Origin: a virus
Taxonomy: Duplodnaviria > Heunggongvirae > Uroviricota > Caudoviricetes
Virus record (IMG/VR): IMGVR_UViG_2698536647_000012
Length of the DNA stretch: 18,232 nt
Direction: 5' to 3' (one strand)
In this document: positions 4,752 through 17,520 of the stretch, piece by piece
Layout: each line of letters starts with the position of its first letter
How positions within the stretch are numbered: the stretch's first letter is position 1
Position numbers and translations under genes: made by a program
The notes under the pieces: model-generated
Databases searched by the model: none
What the model was told of the DNA's origin: nothing
The model's input: only the letters and a program-made list of their open reading frames with translations

Positions 4752-4912
4752 ACAGCTCCCCGTTTATTATTTATCTCCTCAGCCAGCCGCTGTGCTTTCA
4801 GGGGATTTCGGATAACAGAAAGGCCGGTAAATACCCAGCCTCGCTTTGTAACGGAGTAGACGAAAGTGATCGTGCCTACGCGGATATTATCGTGAGGATG
4901 TTTCATCGCCAT
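4724..4912 (-). CDS. Small lambda-like early protein (orf60a-like, DUF1317)
   Basis: 62-aa ORF ([13 protein letters not shown]...) immediately downstream of exo, overlapping its stop, as in lambda. Confidence 0.6.
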
Positions 4913-5583
4913 TGCTCCCCAAATACAAAACCAATTTCAGCCAGTGCCTCGTCCATTTTTTCGATGAACTCCGGCACCATCTCGTCAAAACTCGCTATAT
5001 ACTTTTCATTCCGCTCAATCACGACATAATGCAGGCCTTCACGCTTCATACGCGGGTCATAGTTGGCAAAGTACCAGGCATCTTTTCGCGTCACCCACAT
5101 GCTGTACTGCACCTGGGCCATGTAAGCCGACTTTATGGCCTCGAAACCACCGAGCCGGAATTTCATGAAATCCCGGGAGGTAAACGGGCATTTCAGCTCA
5201 AGGCCATTGCCGTCACTGCATAAACCATCGGGAGAGCAGGCGGTGCGCATACTTTCGTCGCGATAGATGATCGGGGATTCAATAACATTTACGCCGGAAG
5301 TGAACTCAAACAGGGTTCTGGCGTCGTTCTCGTACTGTTTTCCCCAGGCCAGCGCTTTAGCGTTAACTTCCGGAGCCACACCGGTGCAAACCTCAGCTAG
5401 CAGGGTGTGGAAGTAGGACATTTTCATGTCTGGCCACTTCTTTCCTGATCGGGGCTTTGCTATCACGTTGTGAACTTCTGAAGCGGTGATGACGCCGAGC
5501 CGTAATTTGTGCCATGCATCATCCCCCTGTTCGACAGCTCTCACGTCGATCCCGGTACGCTGCAGGATAATGTCCGGTGTCAT
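4903..5583 (-). CDS. exo: Lambda exonuclease (Red-alpha)
   Basis: 226-aa ORF recognised as lambda Exo along its length; overlaps the bet stop as in lambda. Confidence 0.95.
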
Positions 5584-6365
5584 GCTGCCACCTTCTGCTC
5601 AGTGGCTTTCTGTTTCAGGAATCCAATAGCTTTCACTGCTTCGGCCTGTGTCAGTTCTGACGATGCGCGAATGTCGCGGCGAAATATCTGGGAACAGAGC
5701 GGCAATAAGTCGTCATCCCATGTTTTATCCAGGGCGATCAGCAGAGTGTTAATCTCCTGCATGGTTTCATCGTTAACCGGAGTGATGTCGCGTTCCGGCT
5801 GACGTTCTGCAGTGTATGCGGTATTTTCGACAATGCGCTCGGCTTCATCCTTGTCATAGATACCAGCAAATCCGAAGGCCAGACGGGCACACTGAATCAT
5901 GGCTTTATGCCGTAACATCCGTTTGGGATGCGACTGCCACGGTCCGGTGATTTCTCTGCCTTCGCGGGTTTTGAATGGTTCGCGGCGGCATTCATCCATC
6001 CACTCGGTAACGCAGATCGGATGATTGCGGTCTTTGCGGTAAATCCGGCATGTGCAGGATTCGTTGTCCTGTTCAAAGTCCATGCCGTCAAACTGCTGGT
6101 TTTCGTTGATGATGCGGGACCAGCCATCAACGCCCACCACCGGAACGATGCCGTTCTGCTTATCAGGGAAGGCGTAAATTTCTTTCGTCCACGGATTAAG
6201 ACCGTACTGGTTGGCGACGATCAGCAATGCGATGAACTGCGCATCGCTGGCATCACCTTTAAATGCCGTCTGGCGAAGAGTGGTGATCAGTTCCTGTGGG
6301 TCGACAGAATCCATGCCGACTCGTTCAGCCAGCTTCCCTGCCAGCGTTGCGAGTGCTGTACTCAT
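5580..6365 (-). CDS. bet: Lambda Beta single-strand annealing protein (Red-beta)
   Basis: 261-aa ORF recognised as lambda Bet. Confidence 0.95.
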
Positions 6366-6370
6366 CCGTT

Positions 6371-6667
6371 TTATACCTCTGAATCAATATCAACCTGATG
6401 GTGAGCAATGGTTTCAACCATGTACCGGATGTGTTCTGCCATGCGCTCCTGAAACTCAACATCGTCATCAAACGCACGGGTAATGGCTTTTTTGCTGGCC
6501 CCGTGGCGTTGCAAATGATCGATGCATAGCGATTCAAACAGGTGCTGGGGCAGTCCTTTTTCCATGTCGTCTGCCAGTTCTGCCTCTTTCTCTTCACGGG
6601 CGATCTGCTGGTAGTGACGCGCCCAGCTCTGAGCCTCAAGACGATCCTGAATGTAATAAGCGTTCAT
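6371..6667 (-). CDS. gam: Gam (RecBCD inhibitor), 98-aa form
   Basis: Translation matches the lambda Gam short form ([21 protein letters not shown]...). Reading upstream in frame by hand gives a stop with no intervening Met, so only the short form is encoded. Confidence 0.9.
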
Positions 6668-6742: not shown

Positions 6743-7033
6743 TTAGTGATTGAGGCCGTTACCGCGTCCGTCGAGAAAAACTTCCACGAGCAAATCACGG
6801 GTATAAGTGCGCTCGATGCCGCGATGCAGATAAAGCCGTCCGCGTAAATTAGCTGATGCAGTCCAGGTACCATCTTTGTGTTTGACCAGCATGCCTGGCA
6901 TGACCGCACCGCGATTAACGGTCTGCGTTCCGTAATGTTGATGAACCATAAAAACTCCTGCCCGTAAGCTGGGCTGCTGAACATATAGAGACTTCTGCGC
7001 GTATTCAGGCGGTGGATGGCCGCCGGTTGTCAT
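6743..7033 (-). CDS. Hypothetical protein, first gene downstream of pL (ATG-start version of track ORF 6743..7153)
   Basis: The track ORF starts with TTG at 7153. The first ATG (7033) has a GAGG-type SD upstream and gives a 96-aa product ([13 protein letters not shown]...). No family recognised. It occupies the N/kil/cIII position. Confidence 0.4.
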
Positions 7034-7170
7034 AACTAAGCCGCCTCGTTGAAGCGACTGAGGTATAAAGTGTTGTGTTGATTTCAGCTGGTCACACCGA
7101 CGTTCACGCGTCCGTTTCACCCCTCGCACTCCCCGAAGCCTGCTGAAATTCAAACTGCGGATCTAAGCGG

Positions 7171-7222
7171 TCATCGCAACGGTGAAACAGGTGGTTACCG
7201 TATCGTTGTGTCGTTGCGATGA
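7171..7222 (-). promoter_or_regulatory. Compound inverted repeat at the 5' end of the predicted pL transcript (outer stem TCATCGCAACG/CGTTGCGATGA, nested ACGGT/ACCGT)
   Basis: 11-bp outer inverted repeat with a nested 5-bp repeat and reiterated CAACG/CGTTG and CATCGCA motifs, just downstream of the predicted pL start. Confidence 0.4.
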
Positions 7223-7226
7223 ATTT

Positions 7227-7255
7227 ATTTAAAACTATAGTTGTTTTATCGTCAA
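7227..7255 (-). promoter_or_regulatory. pL candidate (minus strand: -35 TTGACG, 17-bp spacer, -10 TTAAAT)
   Basis: Minus-strand sequence gttgttgacgataaaacaactatagttttaaat is nearly identical in architecture to the pR candidate on the other side of the repressor gene. Confidence 0.55.
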
Positions 7256-7290
7256 CAACAAAAGTTGTTTTATCGGTTGTTTTAAATATA
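7236..7290. promoter_or_regulatory. OL operator cluster (reiterated GTTGTT/AACAAC half-sites, e.g. GTTGTTTTATCGTCAACAACAAAAGTTGTTTTATCGGTTGTTTT)
   Basis: Several direct and inverted copies of the hexamer GTTGTT overlapping the pL candidate; the same half-site forms the palindrome at OR. Confidence 0.55.
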
Positions 7291-7429: not shown

Positions 7430-7810
7430 TCAGTCAGCCCAACCTGATTTCGAGTTTATTTGGGTTTCTGACATTGTGTATTTCTTAATCGTGTCATCGT
7501 TAAAAAGAATAGTAAGTTCTTTTTTCGTACCGTTCGTTCCATTATGGAATAATCCATAGAATGGAATAAAAGTGGTGCCATTAACTTTTACTTTTGCAAA
7601 GGCGTACTTCCAGATCTCGTTTCCACTGTCAGTATATGAAACAGCATCAGGAGAACCAAAGTAAGATTTAACCTCATTCTTGGTTGTTTTACCTTCCTGA
7701 AGTTTAGACTGGACACTAATTTCAGTTTCATTTTTGAGTTGCTGGTTGCCTGAAGAAGCACACCCAGCCAATACAGATGCCATCATGGCAGCGATTAGGA
7801 TTTTTCTCAT
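7430..7810 (-). CDS. Lipoprotein (signal peptide plus lipobox LAGC), accessory gene in the rex position downstream of the repressor gene
   Basis: 126-aa ORF, N-terminus MRKILIAAMMASVLAGCASS. Same strand as and downstream of the repressor gene, so it would be expressed in the lysogen. Mature part loosely resembles small BamE/SmpA-like lipoproteins; not verified. Confidence 0.7.
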   Translation of the reverse strand: MRKILIAAMMASVLAGCASSGNQQLKNETEISVQSKLQEGKTTKNEVKSYFGSPDAVSYTDSGNEIWKYAFAKVKVNGTTFIPFYGLFHNGTNGTKKELTILFNDDTIKKYTMSETQINSKSGWAD

Positions 7811-8039: not shown

Positions 8040-8729
8040 TTAACCATGCTTCCTGTACGTCTGCGGCATGCTTCCAATGACCTTACCGAATATGAACACC
8101 CGGTTCATCTCGTCTTTCTCGATCGGGTCCCACGGCGAGTAGCTCTTGTTATCAGAGATAACCAGCAGCTTATCCTTCATCATTTGAAGACGTTTTACAT
8201 GGGCAGTGTCGTCGTACAGAAACGCATAGATGCCATCACCGTCGAAAGATTTAACAGTGATATCAACGAACAGCAGGTCACCTGGTTCGATCGTCCCTGA
8301 CATGCTGTCACCTCGCACGTTAATGATGCGGATATTTTCCGCCTTCCTGCCATCGAACATGTGACGAGCATCGTCAAACGAGTACTCAACCGAGCGTAGA
8401 ACTTCTACAAACTCACGGTTGATTACACCTGGCCCGGCACTGACTTCTATATCAAGAACGTCAATTTTGAAGTATTTGGAATGGCTGACAGTTGATTGTA
8501 TTGGTTGCACTGTACTGTCTGACATATTTCCAACGCCAGAAGATAACCATTCTGCGCGTACACCCAAAGCGTTCGCGATCTCCACGATTTTAGTTGTTTG
8601 GTTAGCTTTCCCTGTTTCGATTTTCTGAATAGCAGCCTGGCTAACCCCGACCAAATCCCCAAGCGCCTTTTGTGTAAGGCCTCGCGCTAATCTGGCTTCT
8701 TTAAGTCTTTCTGAGAGTGTTGTTTTCAT
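8040..8729 (-). CDS. CI-type prophage repressor (N-terminal XRE HTH plus C-terminal S24 LexA-like autopeptidase)
   Basis: 229-aa ORF. HTH segment (LTQKALGDLVGVSQAAIQKIETGK). S24 catalytic motif GDSM (VRGDSMSGTIEPGDLLFVD) and a downstream Lys (AHVKRL). Divergent from the cro-like gene across an operator/promoter region. Confidence 0.9.
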   Translation of the reverse strand: MKTTLSERLKEARLARGLTQKALGDLVGVSQAAIQKIETGKANQTTKIVEIANALGVRAEWLSSGVGNMSDSTVQPIQSTVSHSKYFKIDVLDIEVSAGPGVINREFVEVLRSVEYSFDDARHMFDGRKAENIRIINVRGDSMSGTIEPGDLLFVDITVKSFDGDGIYAFLYDDTAHVKRLQMMKDKLLVISDNKSYSPWDPIEKDEMNRVFIFGKVIGSMPQTYRKHG

Positions 8730-8770: not shown

Positions 8771-8806
8771 ATGGTTGTTGACTAAAAACAACCATAGTTT
8801 TAATCT
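8771..8806 (+). promoter_or_regulatory. OR/pR: palindromic operator ATGGTTGTTGACTAAAAACAACCAT overlapping -35 TTGACT, 17-bp spacer, -10 TAATCT
   Basis: Perfect 25-bp palindrome with GTTGTT/AACAAC half-sites covering a near-consensus sigma70 promoter aimed at the cro-like gene (start 8834, SD GGAGG). Confidence 0.65.
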
Positions 8807-8833
8807 TGATTCGGATTAACCACGGAGGTTGTT

Positions 8834-9064: not shown

Positions 9065-9076
9065 ATTTCCATTTCA

Positions 9077-9088
9077 CGCTCTTTAACA
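9077..9088 (+). promoter_or_regulatory. boxA-like element (CGCTCTTTAACA) downstream of cro, candidate nutR
   Basis: 12-mer matching the lambdoid boxA consensus (CGCTCTT(T)A) in the cro to cII-position intergenic region. No clean boxB hairpin was found next to it. Confidence 0.4.
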
Positions 9089-9133
9089 ATAAGCAATCAA
9101 CTTAACAGTCAATTCAAACTAAAGGAGTCAATT

Positions 9134-9673
9134 ATGCAACCACTTACATACCAACAGACTAGCGGATTTATTCCGACTGCGGTGATAAATCGTTCTCAAA
9201 CAAAACAAGCTCCAGGCCACGAAAAAATCCGTGATGCCGTCCGCGCCTGGTCGGCTGTAGATAATCAGGATGTCGTTGCCGCACTCATTGTGAATGAGTA
9301 TCGGGAGCAGGGCGACGGCACCATCGATTTCCCTGATGATGTCAGCCGTGCACGCCAGAAGCTGTTCCGCTTCCTCGATAACAAATTCGATTCTGAAAAA
9401 TACCGAAATAACGTGCGTGAACTGACCCCGGCAATTCTGGCGGTACTACCGCTGGAATATCGCGGTTACCTGGTTGAGCAGGATAGCTTCATGGTTAGGT
9501 TGGCTGAAATGGAAAAGGAACTCAGTGAGGCAAAACAGGCTGTCATTCTCAACGCACCACGCCACCAGAAACTGAAGGAAATTAGTGAAGGTATTGTGTC
9601 GATGTTTCGTGTGGACCCAGATCTGGCTGGTCCATTGATGGCGATGGTTACTACCATGCTGGGGGCGATATGA
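9134..9673 (+). CDS. YdaT-like protein in the cII position
   Basis: 179-aa ORF with good SD (AAAGGAG). Central segment (ELTPAILAVLPLEYRGYL) resembles Rac-prophage YdaT, which follows the YdaS-type Cro. Confidence 0.6.
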   Translation: MQPLTYQQTSGFIPTAVINRSQTKQAPGHEKIRDAVRAWSAVDNQDVVAALIVNEYREQGDGTIDFPDDVSRARQKLFRFLDNKFDSEKYRNNVRELTPAILAVLPLEYRGYLVEQDSFMVRLAEMEKELSEAKQAVILNAPRHQKLKEISEGIVSMFRVDPDLAGPLMAMVTTMLGAI

Positions 9674-9759
9674 CAGGTTCAGAAATGGCGAAAGCCGGTC
9701 TGCTGGAACAGAACCGACTTTCAGGTGCAAATCGTAACACACTCATTGCGGGAGGAATT

Positions 9760-10689
9760 ATGGCAAACACTGCTGAGATATTCAATTTTCCAGTGCCGGA
9801 TGCGGCACAAAAGGAGCCGCGCGTGGCAGATCTCGATGATGGTTATACGCGCATTGCAAATGAGTTGCTGGAAGCTGTGATGCTGGCCGGATTAACACAG
9901 CACCAGCTTCTGGTCTTCCTGGCTGTCATGCGCAAAACATATGGCTTTAATAAAAAACTGGATTGGGTGAGCAACGAGCAACTGTCCGGATTGACCGGGA
10001 TATTACCGCACAAGTGTTCTGCTGCAAAAAGTGTTCTGGTAAAGCGTGGGATTTTGATTCAGAGCGGGCGGAATATCGGTATTAATAATGTGGTCAGTGA
10101 ATGGTCAACATTACCCGAATCAGGTAAGAAAAATAAAGTTTACCTGAAAGAGGTAAATTTACCTGAATCAGGTAAGAAAAGTTTACCCAAATCAGGTAAA
10201 GGCGTTTACCCGAATCAGGTAAACACAAAAGACAAACTAACAAAAGACAATATAAAACCTTTTTCGTCCGAGAATTCTGGCGAATCCTCTGACCAACCAG
10301 AAAACGATCTTCCTGTGGTGAAACCAGATGCTGCAATTCAGAGCGGCAGCAAGTGGGGGACAGCAGAAGACCTGACCGCCGCAGAGTGGATGTTTGACAT
10401 GGTGAAGACCATCGCACCATCAGCCAGAAAACCGAATTTTGCAGGGTGGGCTAACGATATCCGCCTGATGCGTGAACGTGACGGACGTAACCACCGCGAC
10501 ATGTGCGTGCTTTTCCGCTGGGCATGCCAGGACAACTTCTGGTCCGGTAACGTGCTAAGTCCGGCCAAACTCCGCGACAAGTGGACCCAACTCGAAATCA
10601 ACCGTAACAAGCAACAGGCAGGCATGATAGCCAGCAAACCAAAACTCGACCTGACAAACACTGACTGGATTTACGGGGTGGATTTATGA
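9760..10689 (+). CDS. O: Replication initiator O (lambda O family; contains the origin iterons)
   Basis: N-terminal region (MANTAEIFNF...VADLDDGYTRIANELLEA...RKTYGFNK...NISEW) is clearly homologous to lambda O. The track ORF starts at 9670, but the ATG at 9760 has a GGAGG SD and aligns with the lambda O start. Iterons and an AT-rich tract lie inside the gene, as for ori-lambda. Confidence 0.85.
   Translation: MANTAEIFNFPVPDAAQKEPRVADLDDGYTRIANELLEAVMLAGLTQHQLLVFLAVMRKTYGFNKKLDWVSNEQLSGLTGILPHKCSAAKSVLVKRGILIQSGRNIGINNVVSEWSTLPESGKKNKVYLKEVNLPESGKKSLPKSGKGVYPNQVNTKDKLTKDNIKPFSSENSGESSDQPENDLPVVKPDAAIQSGSKWGTAEDLTAAEWMFDMVKTIAPSARKPNFAGWANDIRLMRERDGRNHRDMCVLFRWACQDNFWSGNVLSPAKLRDKWTQLEINRNKQQAGMIASKPKLDLTNTDWIYGVDL
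10111..10222. repeat. Origin iterons: about five copies of the palindromic 17-mer TTACC(C/T)(G/A)AATCAGGTAA at roughly 23-24 bp spacing, followed by an AT-rich tract (to about 10260)
   Basis: Copies read at about 10111, 10140 (degenerate), 10159, 10183 and 10206, inside the O coding region, which also encodes a repeated LPESGKK peptide. Followed by aaacacaaaagacaaactaacaaaagacaatataaaacc. Confidence 0.8.
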
Positions 10690-11387
10690 AAAACATCGCC
10701 GCACAGATGGTTAACTTTGACCGTGAGCAGATGCGTCGGATCGCCAACAACATGCCGGAACAGTACGACGAAAAGCCGCAGGTACAGCAGGTAGCGCAGA
10801 TCATCAACGGTGTGTTCAGCCAGTTACTGGCAACTTTCCCGGCGAGCCTGGCTAACCGTGACCAGAATGAACTGAACGAAATCCGCCGCCAGTGGGTTCT
10901 GGCTTTCCGGGAAAACGGGATCACCACAATGGAACAGGTTAACGCAGGAATGCGCGTAGCCCGTCGGCAGAATCGACCATTCCTGCCATCACCCGGGCAG
11001 TTTGTTGCCTGGTGCCGGGAAGAAGCATCCGTTACCGCCGGGCTGCCAAACGCCAGCGAGCTGGTTGATATGGTTTACGAGTATTGCCGGAAACGTGGCC
11101 TGTATCCGGATGCAGAGTCTTATCCGTGGAAATCGAACGCGCATTACTGGTTGGTTACCAACTTGTACCAGAACATGCGGGCCAATGCGCTGACTGACGC
11201 GGAATTACGGCGCAAGGCTGCCGATGAACTGACCTGTATGACAGCGCGAATTAACCGTGGTGAGACGATACCTGAACCAGTAAAACAACTTCCTGTTATG
11301 GGCGGTAGACCTCTAAATCGTGCACAGGCTCTGGCGAAGATCGCAGAAATTAAAGCTAAGTTCGGACTGAAAGGAGCAAGTGTATGA
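10686..11387 (+). CDS. P: Replication protein P (DnaB helicase loader)
   Basis: 233-aa ORF recognised as lambda P along its full length; start overlaps the O stop. Confidence 0.95.
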   Translation: MKNIAAQMVNFDREQMRRIANNMPEQYDEKPQVQQVAQIINGVFSQLLATFPASLANRDQNELNEIRRQWVLAFRENGITTMEQVNAGMRVARRQNRPFLPSPGQFVAWCREEASVTAGLPNASELVDMVYEYCRKRGLYPDAESYPWKSNAHYWLVTNLYQNMRANALTDAELRRKAADELTCMTARINRGETIPEPVKQLPVMGGRPLNRAQALAKIAEIKAKFGLKGASV

Positions 11388-11563: not shown

Positions 11564-11887
11564 TAATAGAAAACGTATGGGAGCTTAAATCCTTGTATAT
11601 GAAATTTATTACCGTCGCCCTACGGTTAAATCATGAAAATTTATATAAAAATGAATGTTCGTAATTGCATATTTAATATGATGACCTCGTGTTGACTATT
11701 ATAAATTATAGGTGTGTAAGATGTTTAAAGTAGATGAGGTGATTAATATCGATTCCTTACTATATATTCAAGCCCTGTGATTAAGCGATGTACTGAATGC
11801 TTGTAGGAAGGTTGTATATTATATAGTGTTTAAAATTATGGTGCTACAATTGTTTATGGCGTTTTGCAATCATGCGAAAACCTATGA

Positions 11888-11916
11888 TTGACAATTGTTA
11901 CTGAGTCTTGTAAGAA
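11888..11916 (+). promoter_or_regulatory. Candidate sigma70 promoter for the NACHT NTPase gene (-35 TTGACA, 17-bp spacer, -10 TAAGAA)
   Basis: Consensus -35 hexamer with 17-bp spacing to an A/T-rich -10-like hexamer in the AT-rich leader. Confidence 0.35.
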
Positions 11917-11951
11917 TGCACCACGTATTGGTTAATGAATGTGGTGAAAAA

Positions 11952-13847
11952 ATGGATGAGTTTCTTGCGACTATTATTAATAGCACAGTAGGAAAAGCTG
12001 CGGAAAAAATAACAGAAGTATTGCTCTCTAAACCTTGGGCTAGGGACCTAGATGAAGGCAAGGTTATACTCGAACAATTAAATGATCCCCTCGGAAGAGA
12101 AAATTATTTAAGAAAGCATGTGCTACCATCTCTGAAAATGAGAACTTTGCACAACGCTGATTATGATATTTTTTTAGATGATATTTATTATCCGTTAACT
12201 GTTGAGGTGGCATCTAATAAAGACAAGGTCGTTATAAAAGATGGGGTCACTTTACCATTTCATGGTATTGTAAATATAGTCGGTATAGCGGGGCAAGGGA
12301 AAAGTACTATTTTACGCAAGTTGTTTAGCGAGGAAATAAAAAAATCAGAACGGATGCCTTTTTTTATTGAATTAAGAAGGGTGAAGAATGCAAATATTAT
12401 TGCTTATCTGGCAGACATTCTTAATTCATTTGGTGTGGGGTGTTCAGAGGATAGCTTGAAAATATTACTGCAATCCCAAAGAGTCGTTTTAATGTTGGAT
12501 GGATTTGATGAGGTTAAACATGAAGAGCGAACTATGATGATGAATGAAATAAAAAACATTCATTATCATTTTAACACACCAATTATCGCAACAACGAGAC
12601 CAAATACAGATATATGTTATACTACTGATGTGTATAATATTTTTATAGATAAGCTAAATATTTCTGATAAGATTTGTATTCTTCATTCTTTATCGAAAAA
12701 TGACAGATTCTCAAGTAGTGATGCCTCGTTTAAAGTCTTGGCGGATTTACTATGTGATAAAGAAGAACTTGAGGGAACTATTTGCAATCCAATTTTAGTT
12801 ACTCTTTTGTATTATTGTTATCCTTATATGAATGATATTCCAAATAATATAATAGAGTTTTATCGAAGCCTCTTTGACACCTTATATGCAAGGCATGATA
12901 AAATAAAAGTATATACGCGCGAGAAAAAATCAAACATTATTGGTGAAAAAGCTAAATTGTGTTTTTCAGCTATTTGCTATAACGCACTGATTGAGGAGAA
13001 ATTTGAGTTTTGGGGAGAGGAGTTGCTTAGATATGCTGAAGATGCTATTGAAACAGAAGGTTATCTTAAAGAAGATGCATCAAACTTTATAGATGATCTT
13101 ATTGAGATAACTTGCCTTATCCAACCTGAGGGAAATAATAGGTATGTTTTTCTGCATAAATCAGTGCAAGAATTTTATGCTGCTTTTGCGGTAGCAAATT
13201 TACCGATTGAGTATAAAAAAGATATATACGAAAATCTTATGGTGGCTATTAAATGCTCTGAACAGTTAGATAACTTCATGTTGTTTTTACATTCACTAGA
13301 TTCCAAAGCATTTATAGATGAAATCACAATAAAAGCTTCTCGTGATATGGGGGTTGTAGATGTCGCAAACATGACGAGAGAGAGAGTTGAGAATGTTTTT
13401 GACTCGGCACTAAGTAGAGTATTTATCAAAGGCAACTCGACATCGAATGACTCAGTGATTTCGCTTCATTACGACTTTGTATTAGGTTCGCTCTTAGGTA
13501 TTGATATTCTACCTATAATGTCTGGAAAAGAACGAGTTCCTATGACAGAAATTGATTTGATTTTTGACGACCTTTTTTCATGCACGATGGATAAGGGTGA
13601 GTTAAACTTATACAAATTTGAAGTTAAAAAACAAAAAAATAATATTGATACTGATGTTCAGACTGATGATTATTTATTTCCCTTGGTGGATTATCTTAAG
13701 GTCAGGGGGGTTTATGGTTTGATGCTGGATACTTACCATCAGACAATTAAGGATTTTTATGATAGATATTATCAACCAGCTTATGATTCGAATCTTCGAA
13801 GAACACTAGCAATGGGAAGAAATTTCAAGTTAAAGAAAAATAATTAA
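11952..13847 (+). CDS. NACHT-type STAND NTPase (bacterial NLR-like protein), candidate anti-phage defence protein
   Basis: Walker A GIAGQGKST; Walker B of the NACHT type (VVLMLDGFDEV); sensor-1-like IIATTRP; NPxL-type segment (CNPILVTLL); winged-helix signature YVFLHKSVQEFYAAF. Start placed at the second in-frame ATG (MDEFLAT...); the track ORF begins at a TTG at 11895. Sits in a visibly AT-rich island. Confidence 0.85.
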   Translation: MDEFLATIINSTVGKAAEKITEVLLSKPWARDLDEGKVILEQLNDPLGRENYLRKHVLPSLKMRTLHNADYDIFLDDIYYPLTVEVASNKDKVVIKDGVTLPFHGIVNIVGIAGQGKSTILRKLFSEEIKKSERMPFFIELRRVKNANIIAYLADILNSFGVGCSEDSLKILLQSQRVVLMLDGFDEVKHEERTMMMNEIKNIHYHFNTPIIATTRPNTDICYTTDVYNIFIDKLNISDKICILHSLSKNDRFSSSDASFKVLADLLCDKEELEGTICNPILVTLLYYCYPYMNDIPNNIIEFYRSLFDTLYARHDKIKVYTREKKSNIIGEKAKLCFSAICYNALIEEKFEFWGEELLRYAEDAIETEGYLKEDASNFIDDLIEITCLIQPEGNNRYVFLHKSVQEFYAAFAVANLPIEYKKDIYENLMVAIKCSEQLDNFMLFLHSLDSKAFIDEITIKASRDMGVVDVANMTRERVENVFDSALSRVFIKGNSTSNDSVISLHYDFVLGSLLGIDILPIMSGKERVPMTEIDLIFDDLFSCTMDKGELNLYKFEVKKQKNNIDTDVQTDDYLFPLVDYLKVRGVYGLMLDTYHQTIKDFYDRYYQPAYDSNLRRTLAMGRNFKLKKNN

Positions 13848-13931
13848 ATTGATAGTTACAAAGAGACAGCTAATTATAAGTTTCTAACAGTTGAAAAATT
13901 AATTGTAAGTAGGCAATATTAATAAGCCGGA

Positions 13932-14029
13932 GCCTGAACAACTCCGGTGACTTCTGCGCTAAACGGGGACGTTTATGCGCACATACAATCCAACCTATCT
14001 TCTCCATTCACAGATGCAGAAATGCACCT
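13932..14029. repeat. Copy A of a ~100-bp bipartite repeat (conserved ends GCCTGAACA.C.C.GGTGACTTCTGCGC and CACAGATGCAGAAATGCACCT, variable middle)
   Basis: Both conserved blocks recur about 1.48 kb downstream with the same spacing (about 77-78 bp). Confidence 0.6.
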
Positions 14030-14281
14030 ACGATTTTTTACATTCGGTGTTTTACTTCGACAGCCAGAATTGGGAGTCTCTATTCGTCTGGCGGCTAAAG
14101 GTGATATGGAAATCGTTATGTTTTGGCCTGAGGTAGTTGTAACTGTTGTAGCAGCTATGGCTGTGATCATCATGGTGTCCATTTACTGGGGTTGACGACA
14201 TGATTTATCTGGGGATATATTCTGTGCGTTGCCGCAAAATCGGCACACGGGATTGGCGTCCCGGAATACTACTCAACGCAT

Positions 14282-14303
14282 ACCGCGTTAAGCGGTTTTT
14301 TTA
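14282..14303 (+). terminator. Candidate intrinsic terminator (ACCGC-gttaa-GCGGT then T7)
   Basis: 5-bp stem and 5-nt loop followed by TTTTTTT on the plus strand, upstream of the Roi-like gene. Confidence 0.4.
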
Positions 14304-14458
14304 TGCGCTAAGCACGGCTACGCCCAAATTATGGTGGGCTGTGTGAGGGCTTCTTCGGGAGCGCCGGATTTGAGTAGCCGGTTACGCCAACCTTGCACAG
14401 TTCACCACCAGTCGATTGGCGTCGTTGGTGGTGATGGTTAACCTGATGAGGTGAAACT

Positions 14459-15073
14459 ATGACTACTCAATTAGCATTCCACAAAACGACGTTTACCCCA
14501 ATTTGCCACAATAACAGAATTTGGCTTACTGCCACTGAAGTTGGTTTAGCTCTGGAATATGCGGACGATAAAGCAGTTCAGCGCATTTACTCTCGTCACT
14601 CAGATGAATTTACAGATATGATGACAAGGGTGGTCAAAGTGACCACCCCTCGTGGAATGCAGGACTCTCGAGTATTTAGCCTTCGCGGAGCCCATTTGAT
14701 CGCCATGTTTGCACGAACTCCTGTAGCCAAAGAGTTCCGCCGCTGGGTTCTGGATATTCTCGATCGAGAAGTTCAACAATCCCCGATCACAAAACAATTC
14801 ACTGATAACGAACTTTGCACACTTGCTTGGTTATGGCGAGCTGGGGATGCGATGTTAACCGCCTGCCAGAACGTTACTCCTCTTCTTCAGGTTGCGGAGC
14901 ATCGTGAAGCTGGTCGCTTCACTTCCATCGAGCAAGAATATCCCCAGATACTCACCAGAGCGCGAGCAATCCTCGCCAGAGAAACGGCACATGTAAAATT
15001 CCAGCCGTGGCAGGATGATAAGTGGAGTCGAGTATTGCCACATTTGCGTCAGAATGTTATTAAACAACGTTAG
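14459..15073 (+). CDS. Bro-N domain protein (Roi / antirepressor-like DNA-binding protein)
   Basis: 204-aa ORF with Bro-N-type N-terminal features (RIWLTATEVGLALEY..., ...FRRWVLDIL). SD GAGGTGA upstream. Position between the replication and nin genes, as for HK022 roi. Confidence 0.65.
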   Translation: MTTQLAFHKTTFTPICHNNRIWLTATEVGLALEYADDKAVQRIYSRHSDEFTDMMTRVVKVTTPRGMQDSRVFSLRGAHLIAMFARTPVAKEFRRWVLDILDREVQQSPITKQFTDNELCTLAWLWRAGDAMLTACQNVTPLLQVAEHREAGRFTSIEQEYPQILTRARAILARETAHVKFQPWQDDKWSRVLPHLRQNVIKQR

Positions 15074-16959: not shown

Positions 16960-17044
16960 AGTCAGAGATAACAATCAACTAATACTGTTTTGTTGATTTT
17001 TGCTTGTAATTGGCGTTCTGGTCTGAGTTTTGTGGAGTAAGTTG

Positions 17045-17422
17045 ATGCGTGATATTCAGATGGTTCTTGAGCGTTGGGGAGCGTGGGCGGCTAATAATCA
17101 TGAAGATGTGACCTGGTCGTCCATTGCCGCCGGTTTTAAGGGATTAATTCCTTCAAAGGTAAAATCTCGCCCACAATGTTGTGACGATGACGCGATGATC
17201 ATTTGCGGGTGCATGGCCCGTCTGAAAAAGAACAACAGCGATTTGCATGATTTATTGGTGGACTATTATGTCGGCGGCATGACTTTTATGGCGCTTGCAC
17301 GTAAGCATGGGCGATCTGATTGTTGGGTTGGCAGGATGCTTCAGAAAGCTGAGGGCGTAGTGGAGGGTATGCTGATGGTGTTGGATCTCCGATTGGAGAT
17401 GGATGCTGATTGTTCGAAATAA
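17045..17422 (+). CDS. quuD: Late antiterminator Q (phage 82 / DLP12 QuuD type)
   Basis: Track ORF 17030..17422 begins at a TTG; the ATG giving [22 protein letters not shown]... is the likely start. Sequence recognised as QuuD/Q82-like, followed by a pR'-like promoter and terminator. My hand count of the printed sequence is 1 nt out of register with the track here, so the start is given in the track frame. Confidence 0.85.
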
Positions 17423-17434
17423 TTAAAGGAAAAG

Positions 17435-17463
17435 TTGCTGTCTGATTGTCATTAGTCTAACAT
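17435..17463 (+). promoter_or_regulatory. pR' late promoter candidate (-35 TTGCTG, 17-bp spacer, -10 TAACAT)
   Basis: Promoter-like hexamers immediately downstream of Q with a short leader to the tR' hairpin; the qut site is expected to overlap. Confidence 0.4.
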
Positions 17464-17520
17464 TTTAAATGTTGGAATCGCAACGTAGTTATTATCATAT
17501 AACAGCTTGTTTCCTGATTT

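Follow-up and report, generated by a model that had tools for sequence, protein, structure and literature searches.

The nut sites of lambdoid phages consist of a boxA and a boxB on the early transcript and are read by NusB/S10 and the phage N protein; boxA is thus the textbook half of the lambda nut site, and is also known from the antitermination signal of the rrn operons. What, then, is the role of a boxA in a phage without its usual partners? The question arises from an 18,232-nt stretch of DNA (IMG/VR record IMGVR_UViG_2698536647_000012; hereafter the window, meaning this whole stretch), which is the early region of a lambdoid Escherichia coli prophage. A preliminary description, made from the letters of the sequence alone, pointed at a 12-mer at about 9077-9088, downstream of the cro-like gene, that matched the lambdoid boxA consensus in the expected nutR position, was not followed by a boxB hairpin and was found in a phage with no N gene. 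Comparison with relatives leads us to conclude that this 12-mer is a genuine nutR-derived boxA turned orphan, i.e. the leftover half of a classical antitermination site, which probably still works with host factors alone.

Both the match and the position given in that description proved correct. The 12-mer CGCTCTTTAACA occupies exactly 9077-9088 on the + strand, beginning 13 nt after the cro stop codon (9064) and ending 45 nt before the ydaT start codon (9134), within a cro-ydaT spacer of 69 nt (9065-9133). It is the sole exact copy in the window, and no other match within one mismatch of the 11-mer GCTCTTTAACA was found on either window strand. Positions 9078-9088 match perfectly, and as the only such match in the window, the consensus of functional NusB/NusE sites, GYTCTTTAANA (PMC5725501); by sequence the site falls within the definition of a NusB/E BoxA, and binding of NusB/S10 is predicted. 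It lies on the cro/ydaT strand, 3' of a putative operator/promoter region recognised from its sequence and from the pL region, where 19 nt of it recur in inverted orientation with 95% complementarity; pL and pR were provisionally assigned because of this inverted copy. The pR transcript would start near 8810-8815, placing boxA approximately 260-270 nt into the RNA.

In a spacer rich in A and T, a 12-mer made up mostly of these letters could also match by chance. When the window was shuffled, 0.12 matches to GYTCTTTAANA were expected on either strand, and the degenerate 11-mer was present at least once somewhere in the window in 24/200 shuffles; by arithmetic from the same shuffles, a sense-strand match within the 69-nt spacer is expected about 2 times in 10,000. 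Furthermore, position and strand are those of nutR in lambda, P22 and many relatives, and the flanking spacer can be aligned with boxA-bearing relatives. This homology effectively refutes a chance match, to which we attach next to no probability.

Descent from nutR was analysed through Cro, as a search of contigs with the single YdaT protein gave no match. The alignment of 34 Cro homologues led to 41 loci, one genome per species; four loci with the closest Cro relatives were added, and 44 loci had sufficient downstream sequence for boxA to be counted (relatives are denoted below by L-numbers). A boxA was located 7-25 nt after the cro stop codon in 20/44 of these loci, 13 of them perfect and 7 with one mismatch. 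Thirteen of the 20 also had a perfect boxA on the opposite strand, left of the repressor gene. Wherever this left-arm boxA was examined, a hairpin similar to that of the right arm comes next, constituting nutL, and then an open reading frame (ORF) with an N-type arginine-rich N-terminus. The P22-like N motif GNAKTRRHERRRKLAIERD of L018 adjoins the P22 boxB GCGCTGACAAAGCGC, and L008 has the phage-21-type N motif SKSRYKARR; further N-type arginine-rich ORFs were seen in L012, L014, L016, L017, L019, L021 and L024. Comparison with the nutR regions of P22 and lambda showed agreement in position (boxA starts 7 nt after cro in P22 and 8 nt in lambda, vs 13 nt in the window), and the boxA 12-mer with the next approximately 10 nt of relatives aligns with P22 nutR, CGCTCTTTACCAATCTGAAC. 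Since many Cro-homologous loci have nutR, nutL and N, the boxA after a YdaS-type cro is the nutR boxA by descent; on the strength of these alignments, the boxA of the window is homologous to nutR.

A boxA at the nutR-equivalent position is likewise present in the closest relatives, L126-L129, but not in the 4A7 and HK639 loci that were read. L126-L129 (82-86% aa in Cro) carry a boxA, approximately 20 nt of spacer, a hairpin GGCUGA-NNNN-UCAGCC and the ribosome-binding site of the next gene, which is ydaT in L126 and a PF05269 cII in L127-L129; they have no left-arm perfect boxA or hairpin copy. More than 20 IMG/VR phages have the same array of boxA, 20-nt spacer and GGCUGA-N4-UCAGCC once per locus and no nutL. 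A hairpin in the nutR position is found in N-less phages including L126-L129, L132, L139 and L155, with loops mostly of the GNRA type. A role of this hairpin as a boxB for N was considered but rejected: each locus has a single copy, with none in a nutL, and the loops differ between close relatives (ATTA, GTAA, GCAA, GTTA, GAAA, GGAA), which speaks against specific recognition of a boxB by N.

In the window itself the hairpin is missing. As the preliminary description had stated, no boxB-type hairpin follows boxA: RNAfold gave -4.1 kcal/mol for 9065-9140 (z = -0.28) and -3.6 kcal/mol for 9065-9133 (z = -0.76), neither better than shuffles, and no GC stem was seen in 9065-9133. What the description had missed is that the hairpin was lost secondarily, since the closest relatives still have one, although not an N-type boxB. 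Their homologous spacers fold into a clear hairpin of 6-7 bp (e.g. L129, z = -2.9). The window spacer aligns with the L126/L129 type across boxA and most of the 20-nt spacer, and then reads AGTCAATTCA where relatives have GGCTGAATTATCAGCC; it is approximately 25 nt shorter, 69 nt vs 87-96 nt. Judging from this alignment, the hairpin partner is secondarily lost in the lineage of the window. The end of the remnant carries AAGGAG (9122-9127), the Shine-Dalgarno sequence of ydaT. No YdaT operator of the form TTGATT-N6-AATCAA (PMC9986795) was seen on inspection of the spacer by eye; such an operator should lie outside the spacer, because the same YdaT serves phages with unrelated spacers.

To see how the module varies among N-less phages, IMG/VR was scanned with a pattern keyed on boxA and spacer, which brought up many further phages of this kind, and again with a pattern keyed on the hairpin and ATGCAA to avoid selecting on boxA. 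The hairpin-anchored scan returned 23 distinct sequences from the end of cro to ydaT, on which the following counts are based. All 23 have a boxA approximately 20 nt 5' of the hairpin, 22 at consensus and one (L321) with a single G1-to-T change. Within the boxA 11-mer, 3/11 columns vary and the mean pairwise identity is 0.94; the variable columns are the degenerate Y2 (C/T) and N10 (C/A), plus one singleton. The 20 nt 5' of boxA are unrelated sequences, with 20/20 variable columns and an identity of 0.48, while the boxA-hairpin spacer varies at 15/20 columns (0.71) and the 30 nt 3' of the hairpin at 22/30 (0.69). This apparent pattern of substitutions is what selection for NusB/S10 binding would produce. 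Moreover, L167 and L191 represent a second lineage in which a perfect boxA stands before a ydaT-like gene without any hairpin. Thus, boxA outlives the hairpin, as two lineages, those of the window and of L167/L191, lost the hairpin and kept a perfect boxA. The form of the window is widespread: its oR-cro-boxA segment is present at 95-100% identity in 1524/5426 complete E. coli genomes (~28%).

On the left arm, the preliminary claims that N is missing and that the antitermination arrangement is atypical were both borne out. No N family was found by Pfam and PHROG scans of all leftward ORFs of the window, and kil is the first gene after pL. There is no boxA on the pL transcript (at most one mismatch, both strands), so there is no nutL, and apart from the operators the two leaders have no repeats in common. 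The start of Kil, MTTGGHPPP, and its ribosome-binding region are common to relatives, as seen in the comparison with L126, and there is consequently no N gene between pL and kil.

An unrecognised N could still be sought in an ORF that begins at GTG 7120 (- strand, 7034-7120), is in frame into kil and reads MKRTRERRCDQLK / MKRTRERRCDQLKSTQ..., with an N-like arginine-rich motif; boxA would then be half of an N-dependent nut site with a non-canonical RNA partner. The arginine-rich N-terminus MKRTRERRCDQLK, as read from the sequence, favours such a gene, as do GGGGAG 8 nt 5' of the GTG, a GTG-to-ATG change at 7120 in 6/54 haplotypes and a common synonymous AAA-to-AAG change in codon 2. Against this, the ORF matches no N family of Pfam or PHROG, its only match being Kil over residues 49-125, and the variable sites in the 54 haplotypes number 9, 6 and 6 at codon positions 1, 2 and 3, with no third-position excess. 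Furthermore, no hairpin lies near boxA, no boxA lies in the pL leader and the leaders share operators only. The true start is most likely ATG 7033, given the MTTGGHPPP and ribosome-binding region shared with L126, in which the homologous upstream sequence is put RNA and the protein is otherwise unrelated to the Kil of the window. The ORF upstream of 7033 was accordingly judged to be probably non-coding and was rejected as a hidden N. A cryptic N is in our opinion very improbable.

An alternative to N is the put RNA of HK022. A covariance model (R1) built from HK022 putL, HK022 putR, HK639 putL and L126 putL detects puts in other loci, both known and new ones, at 42-96 bits. In the window, its best match for an HK022-type put, with filters off, scored 6.6 bits (E 0.83) in irrelevant places, and a short-word BLAST search was likewise negative. 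What the pL leader does contain is a cassette of approximately 145 nt in the slot that HK639-type putL occupies in L126, L183, L185, L189, L134 and L155, with common flanks on both sides. The cassette starts with a strong 11-bp hairpin at the transcript start and was found in E. coli phages only, at 93-99% identity; phage 4A7 shares it. When the whole window was searched against Rfam with E up to 1, neither boxA nor the pL leader had a match, and there were no compensatory pairs in the cassette fold among haplotypes, only single-sided changes. The cassette is a candidate for a new antiterminator or regulatory RNA.

The left arms of relatives are diverse. L126 has an HK639-type putL in its pL leader, and six phages with the boxA-hairpin module have putL on the opposite arm (93-96 bits), which makes them N-less by the paradigm of HK022 and HK639. 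A third type of pL leader, with a small hairpin and a boxA-like sequence with one mismatch (GCTTTTTAACA), is present in L127 (1250-1860, -) and L129 (1432-1916, -); it continues for approximately 600 nt, is GC-rich and has no convincing ORF. It was also seen in L005, L007, L128, L145, L147, L161 and L178, and L009 has a perfect boxA in the same context. The leader of L127 contains no N-like ORF, and the leaders of L127 and L129 gave no match in Rfam. In L140 (1203-1283, +) and L144 (2776-2856, -), a put-like match to the model of 42-46 bits encloses a perfect boxA (TTAAACCATGCGTCGGAACC-GCTCTTTAACAATCTGGAA), and this element looks like a put/boxA composite.

With the hairpin partner, the N protein and nutL all absent, any action of the boxA in the window must be N-independent. 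Background for such an action exists: boxA RNA is a binding site for NusB-S10, from which an elongation complex that withstands Rho is assembled with NusA, NusG and SuhB (PMC12360218), and boxA acts alone in rrn antitermination and in the suhB leader (PMC12360218, PMC5725501). An 11-nt boxA placed into a CRISPR leader raised downstream RNA approximately 10-fold (PMC7862264). We therefore favour, with a confidence that is evenly balanced, a reading in which host Nus factors load on the boxA without N and give the pR transcript modest protection from Rho, both within the untranslated spacer between cro and ydaT and further downstream; this function would be accessory and not essential. As RNA polymerase leaves cro, the nascent boxA would bind NusB/S10, and these would attach through NusG/NusA (and SuhB) to the elongation complex, in the manner of rrn and CRISPR leaders; early-right transcription of ydaT-O-P would then gain in processivity, and Rho loading in the spacer would affect it less. 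In this chain, NusB/S10 binding and the direction and size of the effect on termination are what we infer.

A number of observations weigh against a role as a Nus-factor loading site. The 29 haplotypes of the window lineage (80 IMG/VR copies) have 2 variable sites in the 69-nt spacer and none in boxA, a variation too low to show selection on boxA itself. Of 71 IMG/VR phages with 96-99% identical ydaT, 35 carry the window-type cro with boxA and 36 a 4A7-type cro, with a 30-nt spacer, without it; no boxA was present in the 4A7 and HK639 loci read (statements on HK639 rest on its GenBank annotation). The existence of phages with near-identical ydaT and no boxA means that boxA is not required for expression of the operon and that any function is accessory. 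The loss of the hairpin may have crippled the functional unit, and lambdoid mosaicism could re-import intact boxAs from N-dependent phages. Moreover, the need for protection from Rho is not obvious, as the downstream genes are translated and tightly packed. Nor is the rrn-type complex known to overcome intrinsic terminators such as that of isrK at 14282-14296. With regard to the boxA-less cro genes, it was observed that these end in a short GC hairpin over the stop codon, approximately 30 nt before ydaT, which reads GCCGCCTAANCTGCGGCG in 4A7-type phages and GCCGCTTAACGGCGGC in HK639 (L002, 10015-10040, +; L004, 6050-6075, +).

Such siblings without boxA are also what would be expected if boxA were an inert relic or hitchhiker, a 'linker' at the junction of the immunity and replication modules inherited from an N-dependent ancestor, with no effect on transcription; it could persist because the lineage is young or because recombination copies a short conserved sequence. 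Mosaic boundaries fit this too: in relatives they lie directly 5' of boxA, where unrelated cro ends meet one conserved boxA-spacer-hairpin-ydaT module, and in the window a boundary lies at the ydaT start codon. The hairpin has decayed in the window, and polymorphism within the lineage cannot show constraint. An inert relic would, however, hardly be kept at consensus in several N-less sub-lineages, and in 22/23 hairpin-anchored sequences, while adjacent spacers differ at 15/20 columns; the few substitutions in boxA fall on the two positions that are free in the consensus, a selectivity not expected of neutral decay. The two lineages without a hairpin, which are independent of each other, have also retained boxA. 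We regard inertness as doubtful, though it is the main alternative. The preliminary interpretation is supported in part: a boxA retained for host Nus factors only would fit the comparative data, the element being far more strongly conserved than its flanks in N-less relatives and varying almost exclusively at degenerate positions, whereas host-factor use itself stays conjectural and boxA is dispensable.

Binding of Nus factors could also have the opposite consequence. In a negative element of the suhB type, NusB/S10 would lower translation initiation of YdaT and allow Rho termination in or after ydaT, which would tie the lysis-lysogeny regulator and the replication genes to the availability of host Nus factors. 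The boxA in the 5' untranslated region of suhB represses translation, triggers Rho termination and works more than 50 nt from the start codon (PMC5725501), and it overlaps a rut element (PMC5725501, PMC12360218); by annotation, the lambda nutR boxA likewise overlaps rutA of the Rho-dependent terminator tR1. In the window, the 11-mer lies at -56 to -46 relative to the ydaT ATG, at the edge of the 50-nt search window of PMC5725501, although longer distances can work there. The boxA of relatives is always directly 5' of a CII-like gene, either ydaT or PF05269 cII, and a published screen lists GCTCTTTAACA ahead of the cII gene of a prophage in E. coli S88 (supplementary table). This position is, however, explained equally well by descent from nutR, 4A7-type phages regulate the same ydaT without boxA, and the A-rich spacer after boxA, with 8 C and 5 G in 45 nt, would be a poor rut site. 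A repressive role therefore appears unlikely to us.

Among known systems, the element resembles nutR of lambda, P22 and phage 21 in lying a few nt after cro and before a cII-type gene, on the same strand and with the same boxA, but differs in having no boxB hairpin, N gene or nutL. Of the four features that define a nut site and are readable from the genome, these three are absent, and it should not be annotated as nutR, though descended from it. The GCTCTTTAACA site is also identical over 12 nt to the core of the E. coli rrn boxA (rrn leader, TGCTCTTTAACAA). With the rrn-type BoxA it shares the perfect match to GYTCTTTAANA and would have to act without a phage protein; unlike it, the site is inside a translated phage operon and not ahead of a long untranslated RNA, and there is no boxC or rrn-type upstream boxB. 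The boxA-spacer-GGCUGA hairpin module of relatives agrees with the window in boxA, in the type of downstream gene and in the N-less context, and its spacer can be aligned in part; the window is without the hairpin and approximately 25 nt of spacer. The puts (HK022 putL/putR and HK639 putL) address the same problem of early-operon processivity without N, HK022 putR lies in the same cro-cII slot, and in close relatives of the window a putL is found together with a boxA on the right arm; by the covariance model there is no similarity of sequence or structure between put and the window site. Moreover, put binds the zinc-binding domain of the RNA polymerase beta' subunit directly and not via Nus factors (PMC9378689). 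No description of boxA-only or boxA plus GNRA-hairpin sites in N-less lambdoids was found in the searchable literature, the nearest being the table entry for E. coli S88, and the boxA-hairpin module of N-less YdaT-type lambdoids is apparently undescribed.

Table 1. Position of the orphan boxA, of the left-arm cassette and of the surrounding genes and sites in the window.
Feature	Position	Strand	Basis or remark
boxA 12-mer, CGCTCTTTAACA	9077-9088	+	conserved block runs to 9090, CGCTCTTTAACAAT
A-rich unstructured remnant of boxA-spacer-hairpin module	9089-9133	+	folding; alignment with L126, L127, L129
pL leader cassette, ~145 nt, without N gene or boxA	7075-7220	-	same slot as HK639-type putL in relatives
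int, xis, small genes	left end of window, before exo	leftward	
exo	4903-5583	leftward	
bet	5580-6365	leftward	
gam	6371-6667	leftward	
Kil-like gene, first of pL operon	6743-7033	-	PHROG 294, E=1.8e-38
Putative oL/pL, TTGTTGTTGACGATAAAACAACTATAGTTTTAAAT	7226-7260	-	common to L126, L127, L129
cI-type repressor, helix-turn-helix and S24 peptidase	8040-8729	-	Pfam PF00717 and PF01381; cI annotated in relatives
Putative oR/pR region	8771-8812	+	operator-like palindrome ATGGTTGTTGACTAAAAACAACCAT; -10-like TTTAAT
cro analogue, YdaS-type helix-turn-helix protein, 76 aa	8834-9064	+	Pfam PF15943, E=6.6e-17
YdaT-type protein, CII functional analogue	9134-9673	+	Pfam PF06254, E=7.6e-30; PHROG 163, CII-like
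O	9670-10689	+	
P	10686-11387	+	
nin-like region, then Q	Q 17030-17422		

The immunity region of the window is 99% identical to that of Escherichia phage PhiR26_1, and the window is related to phage 4A7 (Bievrevirus), with HK639 as a more distant relative (Table 1). The cro analogue also matches PHROG 35, transcriptional repressor, and is annotated as Cro in PhiR26_1. The gene for YdaT, whose role has been described earlier (PMC9986795, PMC8630535), is the first 3' of boxA, and its end overlaps the start of O (9670).

Between cI and pL, in the position of lambda rexAB, lies a moron for a BamE-like lipoprotein of 126 aa (7430-7810, -) with its own strong terminator (7422-7403); phage 4A7 has two different genes there. 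An AT-rich island at 11564-14200 carries a 650-aa NACHT/AAA NTPase (11895-13847) with its own promoter-like site, and is likely a hotspot of defence genes, PhiR26_1 having PD-lambda-1 in the same place. Three proteins were scanned with PADLOC (the NACHT protein, the lipoprotein and the Rha-type protein), and none had a match. Rfam identified isrK (60.7 bits) and C4 antisense RNA (72.4 bits), with a sub-threshold match to the C4 a1/b1 target family (37.8 bits vs a gathering score of 46.7); with the Rha-type gene, this module extends over 14215-15073 (14215-14412, +, and 14459-15073, +) and corresponds to the antisense immunity module of the P1/P7 and Gifsy type upstream of a Rha-type protein. 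The isrK terminator mentioned above is an intrinsic terminator between pR and Q. It should also be added that the pL transcript start (7212-7234, TTTTAAATAAATTCATCGCAACG) resembles the sequence just 3' of Q (17463-17485, TTTTAAATGTTGGAATCGCAACG) at 74% over 23 nt; the latter is presumably the initial transcribed region of pR', and the likeness may be due to chance.

Viewed more broadly, and as a tentative proposal, a sizeable and very widespread group of N-less lambdoid phages and prophages of Enterobacteriaceae might run their early-right operon on a host-only complex similar to that of rrn, and their early-left operon on interchangeable cis-acting RNA cassettes. The right-arm complex would be nucleated by the conserved boxA, usually with a GNRA-type hairpin 20 nt 3' of it and, in the lineage of the window, by boxA alone; the left-arm cassettes would comprise the HK639-type put, the hairpin and boxA-like sequence with its leader of approximately 600 nt, and the cassette at 7220-7075. 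If true, these phages would have no protein antiterminator for their early genes and would use two RNA mechanisms in one genome.

The action of boxA on its own has been shown only recently, in a few cellular genes and in CRISPR arrays, and here the element is kept in N-less phages under apparent selection. If the orphan boxA is inert, it would show that conserved regulatory 'linkers' persist at mosaic junctions and that dependence on N is not to be inferred from boxA alone. If Nus factors do load on it, a phage would here be using the Nus complex naturally and independently of N. This would help to explain right-operon expression in N-less lambdoids of the HK639 and 4A7 type, and boxA point mutants, nusB/nusE alleles and siblings that have or lack boxA would together form a simple genetic system in which the effect of boxA alone on a translated operon could be measured.

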